Source of the DNA: a virus
IMG/VR virus record: IMGVR_UViG_3300021168_000018
Direction: 5' to 3' (one strand)
DNA length: 32,088 nt
Shown here one piece after another: positions 1,770-22,722 of the stretch; position 1 is the first letter of the stretch; each line of letters begins with the position of its first letter. Under the pieces are notes generated by a model. The model had not been told where the DNA came from and ran no database searches. It worked only from the letters and a program-made list of their open reading frames with translations. A program made the position numbers and the translations under genes.

Positions 1770-2441
1770 CTAAACCGTGCCATCATCTCCGAGAAACAGG
1801 AAACGGCTATCAATCATGCCGACCTCAAAGCGGGAACGCGACTTGAAACGGTAAACTTCCATCTGGAACGACTGCCCAGATGCCGGATTCTCTTGGATGA
1901 TTTCCAAGGGGTCGCGGCGCTGAAAGACCAAGCACTTCTTCGGGTCGCCAAGAATCCAAACTTTGGAAGTCAGGAACCTGGATACCAGAAGCTTGTACAA
2001 GCCTTGCAGCGGGTTCACCGTGTTGACGTAACCCGTAGCGTCAGAGGACGCGGACGGAACAGACGGCTGCAACGTAGAATTCAGCAGCTTGGCTCCCACG
2101 AACTTGTCGATTGGCGAAACCAATAGAGTGTTCGGAGAGACCAAGAACTTGTTTCCAAGTGGGTCCGTAATGTTCATCAGCGAAATATCTGCCGATTCTA
2201 GGTTAGCTTGAGACAGACGCGTGAAAGTGGCAGGGCGATTGCCCTTCGGTAGAGTGTTGTATGTGCCGTTGCCCACTCCGCCAACGCCTACTGTATCGTT
2301 GTTGAAAGTCACATCTGGGTCGACAGTGACCCCCTGGACCGTGAATCCAGTGCCGATAATCTTCCCGATCACGTAAATTTCTTCCATGATCTTGAAGTTT
2401 TCGCCCATCTGGGATGCACGGTTCTTAATTTGTCCCGTCTG
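1770..2441 (-). CDS. Major capsid protein, exon 2 (223 aa; Mu gpT-like, HK97 fold)
   Basis: QTGQIKNRASQMGE...PNTLLVSP...VNPLQG...WILGDPKK...FQRRDPLE...YRFKSRSRFEVGMIDSRF resembles the gpT-like capsid C-terminal half. The first 39 codons of the track ORF are intron sequence. Confidence 0.9.
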   Translation of the reverse strand, partial: QTGQIKNRASQMGENFKIMEEIYVIGKIIGTGFTVQGVTVDPDVTFNNDTVGVGGVGNGTYNTLPKGNRPATFTRLSQANLESADISLMNITDPLGNKFLVSPNTLLVSPIDKFVGAKLLNSTLQPSVPSASSDATGYVNTVNPLQGLYKLLVSRFLTSKVWILGDPKKCLVFQRRDPLEIIQENPASGQSFQMEVYRFKSRSRFEVGMIDSRFLFLGDDGTV

Positions 2442-3303
2442 CATTCTGTTACTTGCTAACCCTGCGACAACTAGCAAAACTATCGCAAGGCGGACCACCT
2501 GTTTCCAGTGGTCTCTACTTGTCACCAAGCAGTTCGGACTATATCTTTTCGGAGTCATGCTGCCCTCCGAGTCTGGCGTGTAGTCTCTACGGATTTCATG
2601 AGTTTCTGAAAATGAGCCTTCCAGTAAGACCTATTTACATTTGTTCTAGTGTGACAAGGCACGCAAAGAGAAATCAAGTTGTACATCCAACAGTTCTTCT
2701 TATCGTAGTTTATGTGATGAACCGACAGACGCTTTGGGTTTTTCTTATCACACTCTCTACAAGTGTGATTGTCACGAACTAGAACTCTTCTCCTAAGCCT
2801 GCGAGTCCACCGTTCGTGATATGGATGCTCTGTAGAACCACCGTTCCATAGCGGATGATTCTTACCGGCCATGACACCGATGTGAGCCAAACTAAGAGCA
2901 TCCTTCTGAGCCTCTGTACGTTTCATACCTAGATTGTGAGAACCGTTTTCTCGATTATATCTCTTCAGTGACCTTGAAATTCTAGAGCCAACTTCAGGTC
3001 TCGAAGCTGGATTTCTCTTTCCAAGTTTAGATTGGCTAATTCTCTTTCGGCCTTCTTTCGTCTGACGACACATTTCTGTGCCATTCTTTTTGAAGAAAGC
3101 TATAACGGACTTACTGATTCGGCGACGGACGGAGGCTCTCTTAGCCGGGTTCTTGCTTCCCAGCTTAGAGGCCCTTATCTTGGCCTTTGTTGCTTCCGTA
3201 TGATGCCAACCTTTTCCTCTCATGATCTTTCCTCGGTATTGTCTCGTCAGTTGACGAGAGGTTCACCGATATAGCCAGATTTATCGACGACCAGTGTTAA
3301 CAA
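2442..3303 (-). mobile_element. Group I self-splicing intron (862 nt) in the MCP gene
   Basis: The 5' exon ends in U (GAU) and the intron ends in G (AGAAUG). IGS CUGGUCGUCG pairs with CGACGAU|CAG (P1 with U.G, plus P10). P3 CUGGC/GCCAG; P4 UCGGU/ACCGA; P5 CUCGUCA/UGACGAG; R GUAGAGACUACACG; S AAGAUAUAGUCC (P7 GACUA/UAGUC); P8 UCGGAG/CUCCGA; P9 hairpins with GUGA and GAAA loops. Removal restores the frame. Confidence 0.93.
2555..3223 (-). CDS. Intron-encoded homing endonuclease (NUMOD3 repeats + HNH)
   Basis: HHTEATKAKIRASKLG, QTKEGRKRISQSKLG and RTEAQKDALS repeats; GKNHPLWNGG; RDNHTCREC...VHHINYDKKN...NLISLCVPCH. The ORF starts after P4 and its last codons overlap P7/P8. Confidence 0.92.
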   Translation of the reverse strand: MRGKGWHHTEATKAKIRASKLGSKNPAKRASVRRRISKSVIAFFKKNGTEMCRQTKEGRKRISQSKLGKRNPASRPEVGSRISRSLKRYNRENGSHNLGMKRTEAQKDALSLAHIGVMAGKNHPLWNGGSTEHPYHERWTRRLRRRVLVRDNHTCRECDKKNPKRLSVHHINYDKKNCWMYNLISLCVPCHTRTNVNRSYWKAHFQKLMKSVETTRQTRRAA

Positions 3304-3711
3304 ATCGTCGTCAAACAATTCGCGCTCGAACGCCTCAATCATACCGAATTTCTGGTTGGTCAAGTGGCGGTCGAGTCCAACTACTGGATTGTCCTGGAAC
3401 TCTTGACCACGATCAACTCTCTTCGGTAGATTGGGACGGAACAGCGGAGCGTAATACTCTTGGAAGCGGCGGGATGCCACTTCTGTGACTAGATCAGGAT
3501 ATACGACCGGGACCGTGTTGTAACTGTTGATTGCATAAGTTTGGATACCCGCCCTCAACAGTTGGCCGAATGCAGACTCAGCATTAGCTTCCCGCAACCT
3601 AGTAGCCTGATTGTAGACAGACTCACGGAGGCGTTTGAAGCTGAGCTGAGGGCTGAACCAATCGATCTTGGCTGCGACCTCTTCCCATGGACCTACTGGA
3701 CGTGTGCTCAT
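3304..3711 (-). CDS. Major capsid protein, exon 1 (136 aa); spliced product 359 aa
   Basis: SD GGAGG; LREANAESAFGQLL...KFGMIEAFERELFDDD resembles the gpT-like N-terminal half. The spliced junction reads ELFDDD|QTGQIK. Confidence 0.9.
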
Positions 3712-4266: not shown

Positions 4267-6822
4267 CTACTCGTCGTCTTTCTTCATGGGCACGCCAAGT
4301 TCGGCCAGCCCTTCTTGGAGATCAGAGTTCTGCCCGGATGTTCCCCAGGATGCAAATCCGCCTCTGGCTCCACTGCCTTCAACTGATTCTTGTAGACGTG
4401 ACAAAGCGCCTTCCGTAGCAGACTCTAGGAAGTACGCCGATTCCTTGATTTTCCTGATTTGCTGCTTGACCGTCTTGCCGAACAGTTGAGGTAGCAAAAC
4501 GTTCTTGGCGTTCTCAGGAATAATTTCCTTGTTGACCGCTTCACGGAGCAATCTGCGAGCGGTATCTCCAGAATGGATGTAGAACAGTTTCCCGCGGAAC
4601 ATCTGGATTCTGTCCTCTTTCTTGGCAACGGATTCGCGGAGACGCCTGACCAGACCCGCCAGATGTTCGATGCGGCGATTCGCTTCTCTGACGATCGGCT
4701 TGGCGACTCGTGCTTGACGGCGATTACGCGCGAAGCGGGAAGTCTTCAGCTTATAGGACTTGCCCACACCTGACGTGGATTTGTCCTGTTTGCCAAAGTC
4801 TTCATCGCTATCGTCATAACCGCGAGTGGGATCTGCTCCCTTGGGAAGTGCGCTATGCCCAGAGTGCCCGAGTCCCCCGGCATAAGACGCTTTCTTGATT
4901 GGAGCCCCTTGACCGCTGTCATCCGCTTCTCGTGACAGACGGCGACCGCGACTGGTACGTACTGGACGGCGGCGATTGCTTGCTTCAGCTGCTACGTTTG
5001 GACGCTCGGTATCAAAGCCTTCATCTTCGAACGCTTCATCCATGTCGTCCATGTCATCGTCGTCGTCATCCATATCACCATCATCGTCGCCTTCTGTGGA
5101 AGCCACAGTGCGTGAAGAACCTGGAGCGCCTCCACCGGCTGGCTGACCTCCGCCCCCGCCCATTCCACCTGCTTGCGGAGGCATTCCACCACCCATTCCA
5201 TCCTCGTCTTCGTCCTCCATGCCTTCGTCTTCAAAGCCTTCCATGCCCTCATCCTCAAGACCTTCCATGCCTTCGTCTTCGATCCCCTCTTCAAAATCAT
5301 CGTCTGATTCTGAGGAAGCCACTCGCCGGCGATTGCCAGAAGCCTTGACCGTTTGATATTTGCCGTCACCGCCGTAGTCGTTGTGGTCGCCGATATCGCC
5401 ACGGTCCTCTTCGTCTTCTACATCGGCTTCTTCAAGCTCGTTTTCGGTGTCTTCTGGGTCCGGTTCGTCTACAATTTGATTGTCTTCCCCTGTCCCGTCT
5501 GAGGCTTGCAGTCGCCGCTTACCTTTGCGGAAACCGCGCTTGCCAGATCCGGCAGAGGCCTTCACGTGCTTTTTCGCCATTGATTCCTTACCTCCACTAG
5601 GATTGATGTTGCTGTACTGCTCTTCGTTGGACTGACCCGGACCCTTGCCTGAAATAGAAGCAGCGGCATGTAATGTTCGTGACGCCGCGAATGCCGCTTC
5701 TTTTACCTCGTCGGGATTGTCCGAGTTGTAAGCCGAAACGAGAGAGTCAGCAACTTCCTTTAGTTTCTCGGGACTAAGGGACCCTGCTTCTCTCGTTCTC
5801 TTGGATTTGCTGCCCATGATTCTATTTACTTTGTTCCTGCGACTTTCTAGCATCTTGATGAAACCGCCTCGTGCTGCCGGTTCTGTAACGACGTCTGCAC
5901 TGTCTACACGTTGAAATTCTTCTACATAATTGACTTCCTCACCGCCCATTTGACCTTGCCGAGTCTTGCCCACGGCGTTGATGGAAATGCCGAACAGGTT
6001 GACCGCCGTGGGGTCAGTCAAAATTGTGTCAATCATGCTGGTCAGCCACTTCGCGGAAGGGAAGAAGTGGAGCTTGCCATTGAGCCTAGTTTTGCCGGTC
6101 TTGGGATTCTTGTCTACGAAGCAGTCGCTGTACCATCCCACCAAATCCTTCATGCTGCGTTCTGGCAGCGTTTTCTCTGTGATCGCGTCTGGATGGTCGG
6201 CGTAGGCTTTGGCACCGTTGAAAACCTTGACGCCAGATTGGAGCGCTTCGGCGGAATAAAAGTTGCGATCGCGCGAATTTCCAATTCCCTCCTCTATGAT
6301 GGTTACTAGATAGACTCTGCCTTTGCCGTTTTGTTTCTTACCATCTAGAGGCTTACTAATTTCGTCTCTACCCTTTTCCGTAAAAGGGTGGTTGAATGAA
6401 GATTCACGTATCTTAGAAGCCTTGAAACGGCGGGATTCATGAGTCCCGGGCTCAGCGTTATCCCAAGGATGTCCGAATTTCGAGCTAAACTCTTTATCTT
6501 TATCTAACGCTCTTGCTCCGTTTTGTGCCCATGCACCCATCTTATCCCATTCTCTAGACGTCCCATCACTAGAGTACCAATTTCTAATCTGACTAACGTC
6601 TTTGTCGTTAGCATTTTGCCTTAGTCTACTAAGAGCATCTGCTATGTGGTCTTCAGATGGAATCTTTGGTCTACGATTAGTGGTGTTTCCAGAACCTTTT
6701 TTCCCGCCTCTAGGTCCTGAGCCTGGACCGCCAGCGCGTATTTGTCGTCCACGCTTATCGGAAATCAATCGCTGGACACCCGATCGTTGAAGCTGTCCCT
6801 GCGAACTTGCTGAGGTGGTCAT
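4267..6822 (-). CDS. Prohead protease-scaffold fusion (851 aa)
   Basis: Protease domain at about aa 165-325: VTIIEEG...NFYSAEAL...AYADHP...GISINAVG...SADVVTEPAARG (candidate catalytic His and Ser). It is followed by a long acidic/Gly disordered linker and a C-terminal helical scaffold-like region. The gene lies directly upstream of decoration and MCP. Confidence 0.85.
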   Translation of the reverse strand: MTTSASSQGQLQRSGVQRLISDKRGRQIRAGGPGSGPRGGKKGSGNTTNRRPKIPSEDHIADALSRLRQNANDKDVSQIRNWYSSDGTSREWDKMGAWAQNGARALDKDKEFSSKFGHPWDNAEPGTHESRRFKASKIRESSFNHPFTEKGRDEISKPLDGKKQNGKGRVYLVTIIEEGIGNSRDRNFYSAEALQSGVKVFNGAKAYADHPDAITEKTLPERSMKDLVGWYSDCFVDKNPKTGKTRLNGKLHFFPSAKWLTSMIDTILTDPTAVNLFGISINAVGKTRQGQMGGEEVNYVEEFQRVDSADVVTEPAARGGFIKMLESRRNKVNRIMGSKSKRTREAGSLSPEKLKEVADSLVSAYNSDNPDEVKEAAFAASRTLHAAASISGKGPGQSNEEQYSNINPSGGKESMAKKHVKASAGSGKRGFRKGKRRLQASDGTGEDNQIVDEPDPEDTENELEEADVEDEEDRGDIGDHNDYGGDGKYQTVKASGNRRRVASSESDDDFEEGIEDEGMEGLEDEGMEGFEDEGMEDEDEDGMGGGMPPQAGGMGGGGGQPAGGGAPGSSRTVASTEGDDDGDMDDDDDDMDDMDEAFEDEGFDTERPNVAAEASNRRRPVRTSRGRRLSREADDSGQGAPIKKASYAGGLGHSGHSALPKGADPTRGYDDSDEDFGKQDKSTSGVGKSYKLKTSRFARNRRQARVAKPIVREANRRIEHLAGLVRRLRESVAKKEDRIQMFRGKLFYIHSGDTARRLLREAVNKEIIPENAKNVLLPQLFGKTVKQQIRKIKESAYFLESATEGALSRLQESVEGSGARGGFASWGTSGQNSDLQEGLAELGVPMKKDDE
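5216..5287 (-). repeat. Three imperfect 24-nt tandem repeats encoding G(I/L/F)EDEGME
   Basis: GIEDEGME-GLEDEGME-GFEDEGME in the acidic linker. Confidence 0.8.
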
Positions 6823-6825
6823 AGA

Positions 6826-7026
6826 TTACCAGTTTGGATTCTTCCCTTTTAAGAGGTCGTTTTTCGGTTTCGCCCAAGAACCAAGAAAATTGTCGTACTG
6901 TTTGTTTCTTCCCCTGTCATTCTTGTCGACTTCCCCTCGCATCGGTGGTTTGAGCTTGAGATCAGGCGGCGGATCCGATATCGCAGCATTGACTCCAGGG
7001 TTCTTAGCAAAGGGGTCACGCGACTC
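6826..7026 (-). CDS. +1-frame extension (66 aa) of the 7025..7747 gene, reached by a predicted frameshift
   Basis: Open frame ESRDPFAKNPG...KGKNPNW* fills the gap and ends 3 nt before the protease ATG. It has no start codon with an SD, and its composition resembles neighbouring proteins. Confidence 0.7.
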   Translation of the reverse strand, partial: ESRDPFAKNPGVNAAISDPPPDLKLKPPMRGEVDKNDRGRNKQYDNFLGSWAKPKNDLLKGKNPNW

Positions 7027-7039
7027 AAAGACCCCTCCG
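7024..7039 (-). promoter_or_regulatory. prfB-like +1 programmed frameshift site
   Basis: CGG AGG GGT CTT TGA G: internal SD GGAGG, 3-nt spacer, CUU, UGA; same geometry as prfB AGG GGG UAU CUU UGA C. Confidence 0.72.
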
Positions 7040-7747
7040 GCGACTAGTACGCAGCGCTCGGTCGAAATTTCTCATCTTGCTTTCCATGGACATATTTCCA
7101 GCGGTGCGCTTGCGTTCATTAGACTGTGCGTCGTCCTGCGGAATAACTGACATGACGCGTGGCTTGACCGCTTTAGACAGCATTCCCACACCATGTCCAT
7201 AGCCGCGATTCTTCATGATATCTGGACGATCTTTGCTTTCGCCCTTTTTCGCGGCGTCGATAGCTTTCAGCTTCTTGCCCTGTTTATCCATATGGTCTTT
7301 GATGTGTTCCATGATGGCGACGCGGCGAGTCTCTGAAAGTTTGGGGTCAGACAGGAGCATTCTATGCTTGAAGATATGCTTGTTGTGGTCGTCGCCTTCC
7401 ATGGCTTCATTGATTCGGCCTAGCACAGTGAGCGTCTTGTGCTCGCCGTCTATGATATCGTCATTGTCATAGTTGTCGGCAGAGGTCTTGTCGTTGGTGG
7501 GAACGCCACGCGAGAATTGCGCTTGACCGGTCGGTACGGACGCTTCTCGCAATCTACGCTGCCTGATGGTGGGAGTTTCCTGAAATGTGTCGTTGAAATA
7601 TGACTCCGTGTCAGGTGGGAGGCGCTTTCTAGACTCTCTGATTCTGGACTGCTTTGTGACCGGGTTGCGACCGCCGAAACTGTCAATTTCAAACGTTGCG
7701 CCCATTTCCTCTTCTTGAGGAAGTGTGAAATCCGCCGTATTGAGCAT
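7025..7747 (-). CDS. Head-associated hypothetical protein (240 aa; about 306 aa if frameshifted)
   Basis: Charged, disordered; IRES, LREA, INEA, SMES motifs; SD AGGGAG. Confidence 0.75.
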   Translation of the reverse strand: MLNTADFTLPQEEEMGATFEIDSFGGRNPVTKQSRIRESRKRLPPDTESYFNDTFQETPTIRQRRLREASVPTGQAQFSRGVPTNDKTSADNYDNDDIIDGEHKTLTVLGRINEAMEGDDHNKHIFKHRMLLSDPKLSETRRVAIMEHIKDHMDKQGKKLKAIDAAKKGESKDRPDIMKNRGYGHGVGMLSKAVKPRVMSVIPQDDAQSNERKRTAGNMSMESKMRNFDRALRTSRRRGL

Positions 7748-7854
7748 TATTGATTCTCCCTAGAAGCGATTGGCGGGTGAGGAGGAAGATGGCCTGACCC
7801 GCCTTCTCGCTGTGCGCTGACATAGGCCAATGCGTCGTGGATTGTCTTTGCCAT
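7747..7854 (-). CDS. Small ORF (35 aa) MAKTIHDALAYVSAQREGGSGHLPPHPPIASRENQ
   Basis: Fills the gap, TAATG-coupled to the next gene, 15 nt downstream of an AAAGTAATTCTA motif; no clear SD. Confidence 0.5.
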   Translation of the reverse strand: MAKTIHDALAYVSAQREGGSGHLPPHPPIASRENQ

Positions 7855-7869
7855 GTTATGTTCGCTATG

Positions 7870-7881
7870 TAGAATTACTTT
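7870..7881 (-). promoter_or_regulatory. Candidate phage promoter motif AAAGTAATTCTA
   Basis: Intergenic member of a recurring coding-strand motif family. Confidence 0.5.
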
Positions 7882-7883
7882 CC

Positions 7884-8087
7884 TTAGAATCTAAATCCGT
7901 TGCCAGTGAGATGGCCGGTCATGTTCAGGAAGAACAGCAGGCAAATCAGGAAAAGGACCAGTCCAAGTATCATTTTCAGAGTTGGGTCTAATGCCCATCC
8001 CAGTTTTGCCATGCCCCATTGCAGAATCAGAACGATGATGACCACGCAGATTACGAAGACCACGAACTCGACCATGAACCCTATCAT
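7884..8087 (-). CDS. Small two-TM membrane protein (holin-like or Thivi_2564-like)
   Basis: Two hydrophobic helices separated by KLGWALDPTLK; SD AAGGAG. Confidence 0.65.
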   Translation of the reverse strand: MIGFMVEFVVFVICVVIIVLILQWGMAKLGWALDPTLKMILGLVLFLICLLFFLNMTGHLTGNGFRF

Positions 8088-8108
8088 TTCGTCTCCTTTA
8101 GGCTGGTT

Positions 8109-8747
8109 CTAAAATTCCTTGATGACTACGCCAGAGGTTTCTTGCTTTCTTGGTTGCGGCGGCATGTAGACGCCGGGATTCTTCCAGCCATTGATGCGCT
8201 CGACACCCTTGTGTTGATTGTTGATGAAATCTCCCATCATGTTGTATTGCTCGGAGTCGTCGTCGCGATTGGACTCTTGCGTGCGAGATTCGTTATTGTG
8301 TTGCGACCATGCTATCTTGAACGCGCCAGGAACGCCAACTTTCTTCTTGAGTTTTCTTACTTGGTCTTCACGACCTGGAGGCGCTGACTCTCGTCTAGAT
8401 TCCCCACCCTGAGAATACCCTTTGTCGTGCATCTTCTGAGCATACTTTCCACCCTCTACATCGTAAGGCAATTTCACCATCCTATATTTTCCACCTATTT
8501 TCTTACGAGTGTAGTAGTGAGTCGGATGTCCATCTTTATCTTTACCTACATCACGATGTCGTGGTCCACTCCCCGGTCCGCCTTCAGCGCCCTCGCGCTT
8601 CTTCACGTCAGCATATCGCGGATCTACGTAGCCTTCGTTCGTCTTTGGTGCTTGATCTTTTGGGGAAACGAATGGATTGCCCTCACGCTGTGAGGCCCGA
8701 CGCGCTCCGGTCCCGCTCGCTATCGTCCGTCTCCCAGACCGGTCGCC
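8109..8747 (-). CDS. +1-frame continuation (212 aa) of the 8683..9921 gene; head-associated, contains a GGPGSGP module
   Basis: The track's GTG start (8828) has no SD and lies 146 nt inside the upstream gene; no Met occurs until mid-ORF. The frame is +1 at the CTT C site. Confidence 0.7.
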   Translation of the reverse strand, partial: GDRSGRRTIASGTGARRASQREGNPFVSPKDQAPKTNEGYVDPRYADVKKREGAEGGPGSGPRHRDVGKDKDGHPTHYYTRKKIGGKYRMVKLPYDVEGGKYAQKMHDKGYSQGGESRRESAPPGREDQVRKLKKKVGVPGAFKIAWSQHNNESRTQESNRDDDSEQYNMMGDFINNQHKGVERINGWKNPGVYMPPQPRKQETSGVVIKEF

Positions 8748-9921
8748 GAAGGGACCTCCGCATACTGGATTCTTTGGTGCGAGGCTGGCGGGTGACCAAA
8801 TCTGGCTCGACTTGGCGGCCTGCTCCACGTGGGAATTCGTGACCTAGACCGTCGTCGATTCTGCTGCGAGTGTTGGATTCTCGGCCGAAATTGGCGATGC
8901 GCTTGCGACGTTTCGCACTTGCCATCATCGGCTTATTCGCGTCTTGGGGATTGAGCTTGACCGGGGGAGCGTTCGGGTCCTGGATATCCTGACTCGGCTG
9001 CTCGGATTTCTTCGGGACAGGGACAGGAGATTGCTTGCCACTGATGCCTGGAGTGGCTTCGGCAGAAGCTTTTAACCCTCTGCTGTTAAGATACTGATGG
9101 AGTTCTCCAGCTTGGCTTCCTTGGCCAATCAGTCTTTGTCCTCCAGATTGCCCGACTTTGAAATGGTCCCATACACCTTTATGCAGCGTATTCTGAGAAC
9201 CATTCATAGCGATGATATCCTTACCTTTTTGAAACTGATGGTAAGGTTGGGTTTTTCCATCATCATCCTTGAAACTAGTAGTTTTGACTTGCTTGAACCC
9301 ATGTTTCTGTAGAACCTTCGCCTTTAGCCTATTCCATTTAGGAATTTTGCTTCCACTAGATTTCTCTTTAGGATGTTTCCCACCTTGAGGACCAGAACCT
9401 GGACCTCCTTCTCCCGCTTCACTCTGCTGCATCGACTGTCCCTGTTCAGGTTGCTGCTTTCCCTGTTTCGCTTGCTGCTTCGCCTTCGTAAAGATGTCTT
9501 GGTGATGTTCCATCGCGGCGACATGAGCGTGGCCGAGGTCAGAGTCCAGACCAGCCTTGTCCGCCTGCTTCTTGTGAAACATCATGGCGGCTTTGTTCGC
9601 TTTCATGATTGCTTTCGGTGGCAATTCGCCCATCTGGTCGCCGCCGTTCTCGAACATTTCCTGCAAGCGATTCCCTTCGCGAGTATACATCTTAGAAGCG
9701 CGGAAGTGCGCCAATCCACGATTGGTATTGATGCCATGTTTCGCAGATTGACGCAGGTGGAATTCCTTGGCTTCCTTGATGACCTGAGCGCCTGCTCTGT
9801 CTTCGCGCAATCGCTTGATTTCTGTTTTCTGCTTCTTCATGAAGTCGCCAAGCGTCGGCGGCGTATAGTTCGCGCCCGGTTCATCTTCGCCAGCACAACC
9901 AATTCCAAGATAGTGGCTCAT
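8683..9921 (-). CDS. Head-associated basic protein (412 aa; about 603 aa if frameshifted)
   Basis: LRED, IKEA, LQEM, QSEAGE-GGPGSGP, LKAS, GRES, TKES motifs; ATGA-coupled to the upstream gene. Confidence 0.8.
   Translation of the reverse strand: MSHYLGIGCAGEDEPGANYTPPTLGDFMKKQKTEIKRLREDRAGAQVIKEAKEFHLRQSAKHGINTNRGLAHFRASKMYTREGNRLQEMFENGGDQMGELPPKAIMKANKAAMMFHKKQADKAGLDSDLGHAHVAAMEHHQDIFTKAKQQAKQGKQQPEQGQSMQQSEAGEGGPGSGPQGGKHPKEKSSGSKIPKWNRLKAKVLQKHGFKQVKTTSFKDDDGKTQPYHQFQKGKDIIAMNGSQNTLHKGVWDHFKVGQSGGQRLIGQGSQAGELHQYLNSRGLKASAEATPGISGKQSPVPVPKKSEQPSQDIQDPNAPPVKLNPQDANKPMMASAKRRKRIANFGRESNTRSRIDDGLGHEFPRGAGRQVEPDLVTRQPRTKESSMRRSLRRPVWETDDSERDRSASGLTA
8746..8760 (-). promoter_or_regulatory. 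Second prfB-like +1 frameshift site
   Basis: CGG AGG TCC CTT CGG: GGAGG + 3 nt + CUU-C, with a CGG Arg codon in the A site; the +1 frame is the 8109 ORF. Confidence 0.62.
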
Positions 9922-21492: not shown

Positions 21493-22722
21493 CTAGCCTC
21501 CTACGACATGGAGCATCGGCTTTCGGTACTGTGCTTCTAGCTGTTCGATAGCCAAATCTACAGCGTTTTCTAATCCACCGCCTGGACCATTGCGTACCAG
21601 TTTAGCGTTTGGATAGAACGGAGACTGTCCTGACTCTAGGAATCTCCAGTCTGAATTGCTAGACAATAGAACAGTGAGCGGCTTTCCAAGCGCGTCTGCT
21701 AGACACATCGGTCCTGTCTCTACTGAAACCACGGCGTCTAGGTTGGAAATCAAAGCGGCCAACTCTTCCCAACTATTGAATTTCACGTTCTCTACTGGCT
21801 TGGGCATCACATGGTCGTGTTGCAGATTCACCCAATGAACTAGGTGGTCCGTCTTGCACACTAGACGCATCGCCTGTCCTTCTGTTAGAGAATGGACCCT
21901 GCGTCCACCGTGCTTAGATTCGTCTCCCCGCCAGCATAAACCAACTACTGGAAGCTTGGTTCTGGCTAGGGAATATTTCGCTTTCAGCTTTGGCAGAACT
22001 GTGAATTTCTCTGGTAGTTCCGGCACGTCGGCAGGAGTCGCATTGAAATTCGCTGGTAGGGAGACTACGGTAGTCCAGTGAGATTGTGTCGCTTGACTGC
22101 CAACTCCTATCAATCTATCTGGCCCACACCATGAGGCTCTCTCAAAGAATCCTCTCAGCTCTGGGAACGCGAAATATTTCCAAGAGATTCCCTTCTTGGT
22201 GAGTTCCGGCAACCATCGGCAAAATGTGATTCTGTCACCAATGCCGCCTTCGTCAATAACCAGCAATTCGTCTACGAGTTGTCTCCCGTTCCACGGTTTG
22301 ACGTTCATGGACAAACCGACAGTTAACGCTGATTGCTCTTTAGAAGCACGGGCAGAATCGTAGATAGGCCACGTATCGTGTCTGCCTCCCCATCTGCCAC
22401 TTCTCAATAAAGATTCAGAGTAGGCTAGTCGCACATATTCTTTTTCATCTGCGACCTGATAAGCTACCTTGAAGCAATCGTGTGCTTTGCCATGCTCTCC
22501 TAAATCCTTTAGAATGAATCCTAGGTTCATAGACGTGTTCGGGTCGTTAGGGTCTTTGCTGAATGCGAGTTGAGCTAGAGGCAGAGCGGCTTGCAGATCG
22601 TTCAGAGTGAAATAGCAGATTACTAGATTGTTGAGATTTTCAACGGTAGGACGTATAGAGCAGATTTTTTCCAATTGGCGAACTGACGACTTCGCCTGTT
22701 CCACGGTCATATACAGAGACAA
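21493..22722 (-). CDS. TPR + glycosyltransferase family 9-like protein
   Basis: N-terminal TPR helices; EGGIGDRITFCRW; VGLCWRG; WVNLQ; ELAALISNLDAVVSVETGPMCLADALGKP; SDWRF; SPFYPN. Confidence 0.85.
   Translation of the reverse strand: MSLYMTVEQAKSSVRQLEKICSIRPTVENLNNLVICYFTLNDLQAALPLAQLAFSKDPNDPNTSMNLGFILKDLGEHGKAHDCFKVAYQVADEKEYVRLAYSESLLRSGRWGGRHDTWPIYDSARASKEQSALTVGLSMNVKPWNGRQLVDELLVIDEGGIGDRITFCRWLPELTKKGISWKYFAFPELRGFFERASWCGPDRLIGVGSQATQSHWTTVVSLPANFNATPADVPELPEKFTVLPKLKAKYSLARTKLPVVGLCWRGDESKHGGRRVHSLTEGQAMRLVCKTDHLVHWVNLQHDHVMPKPVENVKFNSWEELAALISNLDAVVSVETGPMCLADALGKPLTVLLSSNSDWRFLESGQSPFYPNAKLVRNGPGGGLENAVDLAIEQLEAQYRKPMLHVVGG

Follow-up and report, generated by a model that had tools for sequence, protein, structure and literature searches.

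We describe two short nucleotide cassettes of the form CGG AGG NNN CTT Y that lie in neighbouring genes, here called gene A and gene B, in the head region of a virus. The DNA analyzed, called the window below, is a 32,088-nucleotide (nt) stretch of IMG/VR record IMGVR_UViG_3300021168_000018, which was found in soil metagenomes; it forms part of a 92-kb virus record that is 65% complete. Comparison with related loci makes it highly probable that each cassette directs a programmed +1 ribosomal frameshift at CUU stimulated by an internal Shine-Dalgarno (SD) sequence, giving a short form and a C-terminally extended long form of each protein in a head-module context, as an earlier note on this DNA had proposed. 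The reading we favour, at a probability of roughly 0.6, is that these shifts set a roughly fixed ratio of short to long forms for the portal and for what are probably internal head proteins.

Both cassettes were found on the minus strand where the earlier note had placed them (Table 1), the first in frame and closing the 240-aa open reading frame (ORF) of gene A, the second in frame inside the 412-aa ORF of gene B. The +1 frames comprise 66 and 212 codons, with fused products of 306 and 603 aa, and the site-1 extension stops 3 nt ahead of the protease ATG at 6822, again in agreement with that note. The motif GGAGGNNNCTTY matches the window twice against an expected mean of 0.52, and 11 of 100 shuffles reach two matches; the window-wide count, which is not significant, was therefore rejected as stand-alone evidence. 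Both matches are in frame at ORF junctions and no others occur in the window. Since two matches per window are possible by chance, the case rests on comparison.

For site 1 the DNA set comprised 21 distinct related loci, the window included, 17 of which carry the cassette. Among these 17 the SD codons are CGG in 16 (GGG in one) and AGG in all, CTT is present throughout, the spacer codon is free, and the A-site stop is TGA in 15, TAG in one and TAA in one. A codon alignment contained 31 columns with a conserved amino acid having at least four codons, and only the CGG, AGG and CTT columns were codon-invariant; the median top-codon share was 0.4 and pairwise identity at four-fold sites was 26%, so that third positions are saturated. 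Invariance of these three codons amid saturated sites points to selection on the nucleotides themselves, and judged from the alignment the cassette is under nucleotide-level selection. The +1 frame runs for 66-184 codons in the 17 loci and is conserved from its first codon with no common start, while the four loci without a cassette also have no extension. The alignment of homologues that the earlier note had called for thus finds both motif and +1 frame conserved in 17 diverged loci. Extensions are 85-184 aa in relatives, the window copy being shortened by an internal in-frame deletion. The junction itself creates the tripeptide L-E-S; the overlap T-GAG yields the opening Glu except where the stop is UAA, UAG or UGA-U, in which case the +1 Glu moves one codon later. 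Among 65 database homologues of gene A, 56 terminate with RRxL followed by a stop. Two others (P0061 and P0062, available as proteins only) end RRGLH-stop, possibly a sense-codon version of site 1.

At site 2 the comparison includes natural fusions. The 52 gene B homologues comprise 19 single long ORFs with the C-terminus of the window's +1 frame, 29 that terminate at or just past RRxL, and 4 that belong to neither class; in-frame fused homologues, which the earlier note had suggested looking for, therefore exist for gene B. We built a hidden Markov model (HMM) solely from these 19 in-frame long forms, and it matched the +1 frames of all seven sequenced site-2 loci, six at 43-101 bits (the window's own at 42.9 bits) and one weakly at 7.7 bits, with other frames scoring 3.4 bits or less. 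All seven loci read CGG AGG NNN CTT, followed by CGG in five, TGA in one and CAA in one, and the fourth base gives CTT C in six of seven. In 17 homologues the residue following RRxL is Arg; 9 have a stop there, 2 have Gln and 1 has Trp, the Trp and most of the Gln, Arg and stop assignments being made from protein ends only. On these comparisons the +1 frames at both sites are real protein joined to the upstream gene. The RRxL peptide is absent past residue 170 in 16 of the 19 in-frame long forms, so that it seems to be a side effect of the nucleotide motif. A near-identical 0-frame tail ending SGLTA is kept in 11 homologues, and the differences between the window and locus L002 in this tail are mostly synonymous in the 0 frame; in those lineages the short form of gene B is therefore itself under selection. 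A tree of gene B, from which three short or divergent rows were left out, contains 10-11 changes between the cassette and in-frame states, at least 5-6 of them forced by well-supported branches.

A third cassette, CGG AGG TCC CTT TGA G, closes the 883-aa portal gene (phrog_10963) of a related phage, G001, the phage behind locus L001 (L191:6226-9253). Its +1 frame has 125 codons, and the end stretch is 57% identical to the in-frame portal C-terminus of the window's genome. There are nine matches to the motif in G001, with junction geometry at three (portal, gene B and gene A); the rest are unlike gene-end junctions. The earlier note had pointed out the paired arrangement as one it did not recognise; the pair is not special, as relatives have 0, 1, 2 or 3 cassettes and one of these ends a portal gene. 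Outside the family, in an unrelated HK97-like phage (L053:6295-6311), a portal ORF is linked through CGG AGG TCA CTT CGG C to a MuF ORF in the +1 frame; in its nearest relative found, L182, portal and MuF form a single 660-aa ORF. As a single contig this case is a lead only.

Shifting to +1 is promoted by an SD sequence placed 3 nt from the shift codon and helped by a slow A-site; of the sites tested, CUU_U is the most efficient (PMC5009743, PMC12421855, PMC2377451). By analogy with work on prfB, the anti-SD of 16S rRNA would pair with GGAGG 3 nt upstream while CUU occupies the P site; a slow A-site, which may hold a stop or else a rare codon, for example CGG, would then allow tRNA-Leu(GAG) to re-pair, presumably on UUU (site 1) or UUC (site 2), and reading would resume in the +1 frame. 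An SD-like sequence ends 3 nt before the P-site codon at 17 of 17 site-1 and 7 of 7 site-2 loci. The predicted anti-SD duplex at cassette 1 is -10.3 kcal/mol against -10.7 kcal/mol for the E. coli prfB context, and computed pairing strength at both sites equals that of the prfB context. CGG is the rarest Arg codon of this phage genome (7.8% of Arg codons, counted in the phage and not the host). The sequences flanking the two sites, upstream and downstream alike, gave no stable RNA structure (z -0.7 to +1.2, with mononucleotide shuffles as reference).

As to purpose, a portable cassette CGG AGG NNN CUU Y.. ends several head-module genes and would keep the short and the C-terminally extended forms of internal head proteins and portal at a roughly constant ratio. 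The basic, low-complexity extensions, usually flanked by E-S or E-A, may be cut by the head protease and so would provide low-copy loading into the head. E-S and E-A dipeptides are 1.8-2.0 times over expectation in the gene A and gene B families, and one lies within 10 aa ahead of RRxL in 31 of 33 short gene B forms. Modules of the GGPGSG type are common to genes A and B, the protease and the portal, and A and B are basic. In phage T4 the head protease gp21 cleaves after Glu. The shared motifs suggest that genes A and B encode internal head proteins cut after Glu, the cleavage being an inference. Across minus-strand positions 4267-9921 of the window we also observed that GGPGSG-type and GVKGMKWG-type module starts recur past E-S/E-A sites in the protease, gene B, the portal and relatives, a pattern consistent with exchangeable cargo that would be freed by a Glu-specific head protease. 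A fixed-ratio role, for which Listeria phage PSA and SPP1 offer precedents (PMC5009743, PMC6316719), fits better than the sensing role that the earlier note had attached to the two sites.

That role, in which site 1 reads the level of release factor 2 (RF2), site 2 reads the supply of tRNA-Arg(CCG), and head composition or protease dose follows the translational state of the host, we consider unlikely. A UGA shifty stop does respond to RF2 by its mechanism (PMC5009743), UGA is found at 15 of 17 site-1 loci, and all five sequenced Arg cases at site 2 use the rarest Arg codon of the genome. However, sensing predicts a fixed A-site codon and a UGA-C context, and neither holds. The A-site codon is swapped among UGA, UAA, UAG, CGG and CAA, whereas prfB has TGA in 98.6% and no TAG in 8,164 genomes (PMC12421855). 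The base after the site-1 stop is G in 13, T in 2, A in 1 and C in 1, the C being the UAG case, so that the prfB-like UGA-C occurs in 0 of 15. UGA is in addition forced by the +1 Glu at site 1 and CGG-C by the +1 Gly at site 2, and a switch is missing altogether from the 19 gene B homologues fused in frame. The 92-kb, partly complete record yielded neither a release factor nor a tRNA gene, which also counts against sensing. Separate RF2 and tRNA-Arg sensing as the selected purpose was therefore not upheld, given the variable A-site, the missing UGA-C and the in-frame swaps.

A second possibility is that site 1 serves mainly as a throttle on the protease/scaffold gene downstream of it, by translational coupling, the extension peptide being secondary. 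Some features invite this view: in 15 of 16 loci a few nt at most (overlap to +6) separate the extension stop from the next start, this start has a median SD energy of -3.3 kcal/mol versus -9.8 kcal/mol for the decoration gene, and in three relatives an inserted endonuclease-like gene occupies the coupled position. The reading we favour also includes coupling as an additional role: shifted ribosomes at site 1 would stop beside the weak-SD start and probably feed the protease, and from this geometry the protease/scaffold is probably translationally coupled to the gene A extension. As the principal purpose, however, throttling is quite improbable, as it leaves site 2 and the portal cassette unexplained, the conserved extension sequence argues that the peptide itself is selected, and in cassette-free relatives gene A is coupled straight to the protease. 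GIY-YIG-like endonuclease genes, recognised by eye, were observed between extension and protease with stop-start overlaps kept at L001:7220-7837, L003:5837-6574 and L014:1723-2385.

Explanations without any shift fare worse and are in our view very improbable; in these the downstream frames are genes that initiate independently, or an overlapping TTG (the 59-aa ORF) is what the SD serves, or the stop is read through. The geometry at site 1, with TTG 5 nt after GGAGG, is start-like, and gene callers annotate the extensions as separate genes. Yet the TTG frame is only 6-124 codons long, falls below 20 in 6 of 17 loci, and its TTG is missing in the UAG and UAA variants; the 59-aa ORF, which the earlier note had named as the alternative at site 1, was rejected. 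The first start in the +1 frame falls anywhere from codon 5 to beyond codon 50 with an inconsistent SD, yet conservation begins at codon 1, and at site 2 there is no start codon downstream of the SD. The statement that the +1 frames have no convincing start needed qualification at site 2, where an upstream GTG (8828) is present; it stood in that this GTG has no SD and is unconserved in relatives. Against readthrough, 13 of 17 loci close the 0 frame no more than 2 codons past the site-1 stop. Independent +1 starts, readthrough, -2 shifting and transcriptional slippage were all rejected from the comparison of loci.

Contigs from run X2, which has a different sample and study code and shares year and habitat, cover 6703-8017 and 7990-9321 with zero substitutions and zero gaps; contigs from run X1, possibly the source of the window, likewise show no differences. 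The indel check proposed in the earlier note thus has a second assembly spanning both sites without difference, at the level of assembled contigs. RNA run X3 contributed a few 151-nt contigs over the region at depth 2-3, too thin to show expression. Assembly error, a recent indel or transcriptional slippage is hardly credible even though the evidence on the window comes from contigs, because the second assembly agrees and the frame break recurs at an identical codon in diverged genomes (17 for site 1 and 7 for site 2), which refutes an assembly error; there is no conserved homopolymer run, and the spacer codon varies.

Several points weigh against ratio-setting by programmed shifts as a whole. 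The shift and the isoforms are here predictions from sequence. Neither gene A nor gene B obtained a function from Pfam, PHROGs, Atlas, AlphaFold or Foldseek, and without a family or fold match their head location rests on synteny and shared motifs. Recombination, as opposed to independent origins, may underlie the state switches in the gene B tree. Among the homologues, gene A was never found fused in frame to its extension, nor did any longer fusion of the extension turn up, the latter being weak evidence. Because cassette-free relatives show the coupling geometry too, it may have been inherited as a layout and need not act as a throttle. GTDB genomes yielded neither a host nor a prophage, and INPHARED phages no cultured relative. 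Weak bacterioferritin-like hits for genes A and B (E about 1) were disregarded. Homology between A and B was not detectable (hhalign probability 10%); the gene B +1 ORF gave no Pfam match and neither extension a PHROG match, both being low-complexity and basic.

The closest known system is prfB (PMC12421855, PMC5009743), with which the cassettes share an SD-like sequence that ends 3 nt ahead of CUU in the P site, the presumed re-pairing of tRNA-Leu and a slow A-site; site 1 reads CUU UGA. The slippery CTTT of prfB is present at site 1, and the CTT C of site 2 still allows re-pairing on UUC. The differences are considerable. The prfB site has an RF2-type stop (UGA, rarely UAA, never UAG), whereas site 1 has UGA in 15, UAA in one and UAG in one, and site 2 has a sense codon in 6 of 7; prfB has a UGA-C context and the window's site 1 UGA-G. 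There is no release-factor domain in gene A, gene B or the genome record, hence no autoregulation. In prfB the 0-frame product is a short dispensable peptide, while here it is 240 or 412 aa and makes up most of the protein, the shift being near the 3' end. The SD is here GGAGG read as Arg-Arg, and there are up to three copies per genome. We also observed the identical 15-nt cassette CGG AGG NNN CTT TGA in 20 viral contigs of large phages (75-455 kb; L111, L112, L114, L116, L118, L122, L123, L129, L130, L139, L142, L144, L155, L172, L174, L175, L176, L180, L195 and L197), where it breaks short genes resembling release factor 1 (RF1); the +1 frame holds the PCRF end and the RF-1 domain. In contrast to genes A and B, the shift there comes about 40 codons in and is required for any functional product.

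Structural extensions are known in Listeria phages PSA, A118 and A500 (cps and tsh), SPP1 (gp17.1/17.1*), T7/T3 (gp10) and Lactobacillus phage A2 (PMC5009743, PMC6316719). Like the present cases, they produce short and long forms with a common N-terminus at a set ratio, the extensions are in frame in other phages, PSA and A2 have more than one site per genome, and the shift is close to the gene's 3' end, as it is by sequence in genes A and B and the G001 portal, the structural role of A and B being taken from synteny. They differ in using +1 shifts at CCC-Pro (CCC-U) or -1 heptamers (X XXY YYZ) in place of a conserved CTT. In most of them what is added to capsid or tail is an Ig-like or FN3 surface domain, a common though not universal arrangement; here the additions are low-complexity basic tails on the portal and on probable internal head proteins. 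The yeast Ty1/ABP140 site CUU_AGG_C (PMC5009743) resembles site 2 in its P-site CUU, its rare A-site Arg codon and its first +1 codon GGC, and all five sequenced Arg cases at site 2 read CTT CGG C; the A-site tRNA of such a site would have to be scarce in the host, and the codon share given above is that of the phage. Here, however, the ribosome is bacterial, an SD is the stimulator, re-pairing would be on UUC and not UUA, and the codon is CGG and not AGG.

The coordinates of the features are collected in Table 1. On the minus strand the order is a phosphatase gene, a 189-aa gene, gene B, two small ORFs, gene A, the 851-aa protease/scaffold gene, a probable 173-aa decoration gene and an interrupted major capsid gene. 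The protease/scaffold matched phrog_15531 (E 5e-9) and is about 31% identical to capsid maturation proteases of Arthrobacter phages. The two small ORFs between genes B and A are both absent from most relatives; one has 35 codons (7747-7854) and a stop that overlaps the start of gene A, the other (7884-8087) encodes a hydrophobic two-helix product of 67 aa.

Table 1. Features of the two frameshift loci and the downstream protease gene (window coordinates).
Feature	Position	Strand	Remarks
Gene B, 0 frame, short form, 412 aa; helical His-rich N-terminal domain, then variable basic modules	8683..9921	-	no fold match
Cassette 2, CGG AGG TCC CTT CGG C	8745..8760	-	SD GGAGG 8759-8755; P-site CTT 8751-8749; A-site CGG 8748-8746; +1 codons TTC GGC
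21-residue 0-frame tail unique to gene B short form, dual coding with +1 frame	8683..8748	-	homologue tails
Gene B +1 extension, 212 aa, conserved GW...IKEF C-terminus	8109..8747	-	HMM of in-frame long forms
Gene A, 0 frame, short form, 240 aa; basic, mostly disordered, His-rich helical core	7025..7747	-	no known family
Cassette 1, CGG AGG GGT CTT TGA G	7024..7039	-	SD GGAGG 7038-7034, then spacer codon; P-site CTT 7030-7028; A-site TGA 7027-7025
Gene A +1 extension, 66 aa	6826..7026	-	conserved from first codon in relatives
Head maturation protease/scaffold, 851 aa, weak SD	4267..6822	-	phrog_15531; SD energy

Other inserts were observed in head genes. About 820 nt (roughly 3261-2442), with an HNH/NUMOD3 ORF, are inserted into the major capsid gene (1770-3711, minus strand) and split it. 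The insert has a weak Rfam match to group I introns (E 2.8e-4, below gathering) and relatives have intact capsids of 355-364 aa, observations which point to a self-splicing intron. Outside the window (G000:C1:69846-73844, minus strand), the 1332-aa portal has an insert of about 320 aa which is missing in a relative and has intein-like ends (Cys start, His-Asn end). The structural region of the window also holds, on the minus strand, an InPase-domain protein (PF18823; 24194-25759), a protein with TPR and glycosyltransferase parts (21493-22722) and a methyltransferase (238-960).

We found no report in the literature of an SD-CUU cassette in phage structural genes, most subscription journals being outside the search, and every CUU-stop +1 entry in RECODE is a prfB gene (PMC10885494). 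The SD-CUU signal, a textbook example otherwise bound to a single gene, would work here like that of prfB while being reused as a modular device on several head genes, which would be a new use. A broader view, which we offer tentatively and regard as doubtful when all its parts are taken together, is of a general mobile dial for head assembly that also extends beyond this family (L053), with low-copy cargo on the portal and internal proteins that the protease could release, gating of the maturation protease itself by coupling, and CUU-CGG-C tying head composition to the host's supply of release factors and tRNA. If true, bacteria would have in CUU-CGG-C a naturally occurring hungry-codon +1 shift driven by an SD. 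Stop and sense codons are interchangeable at the A-site, and with in-frame fusions as natural controls these loci would provide a natural allelic series on how shift rates depend on the A-site codon and on the fourth base. In these phages the portal and head genes are split or truncated by gene callers, and the 15-nt motif may be used to find hidden fusions elsewhere.

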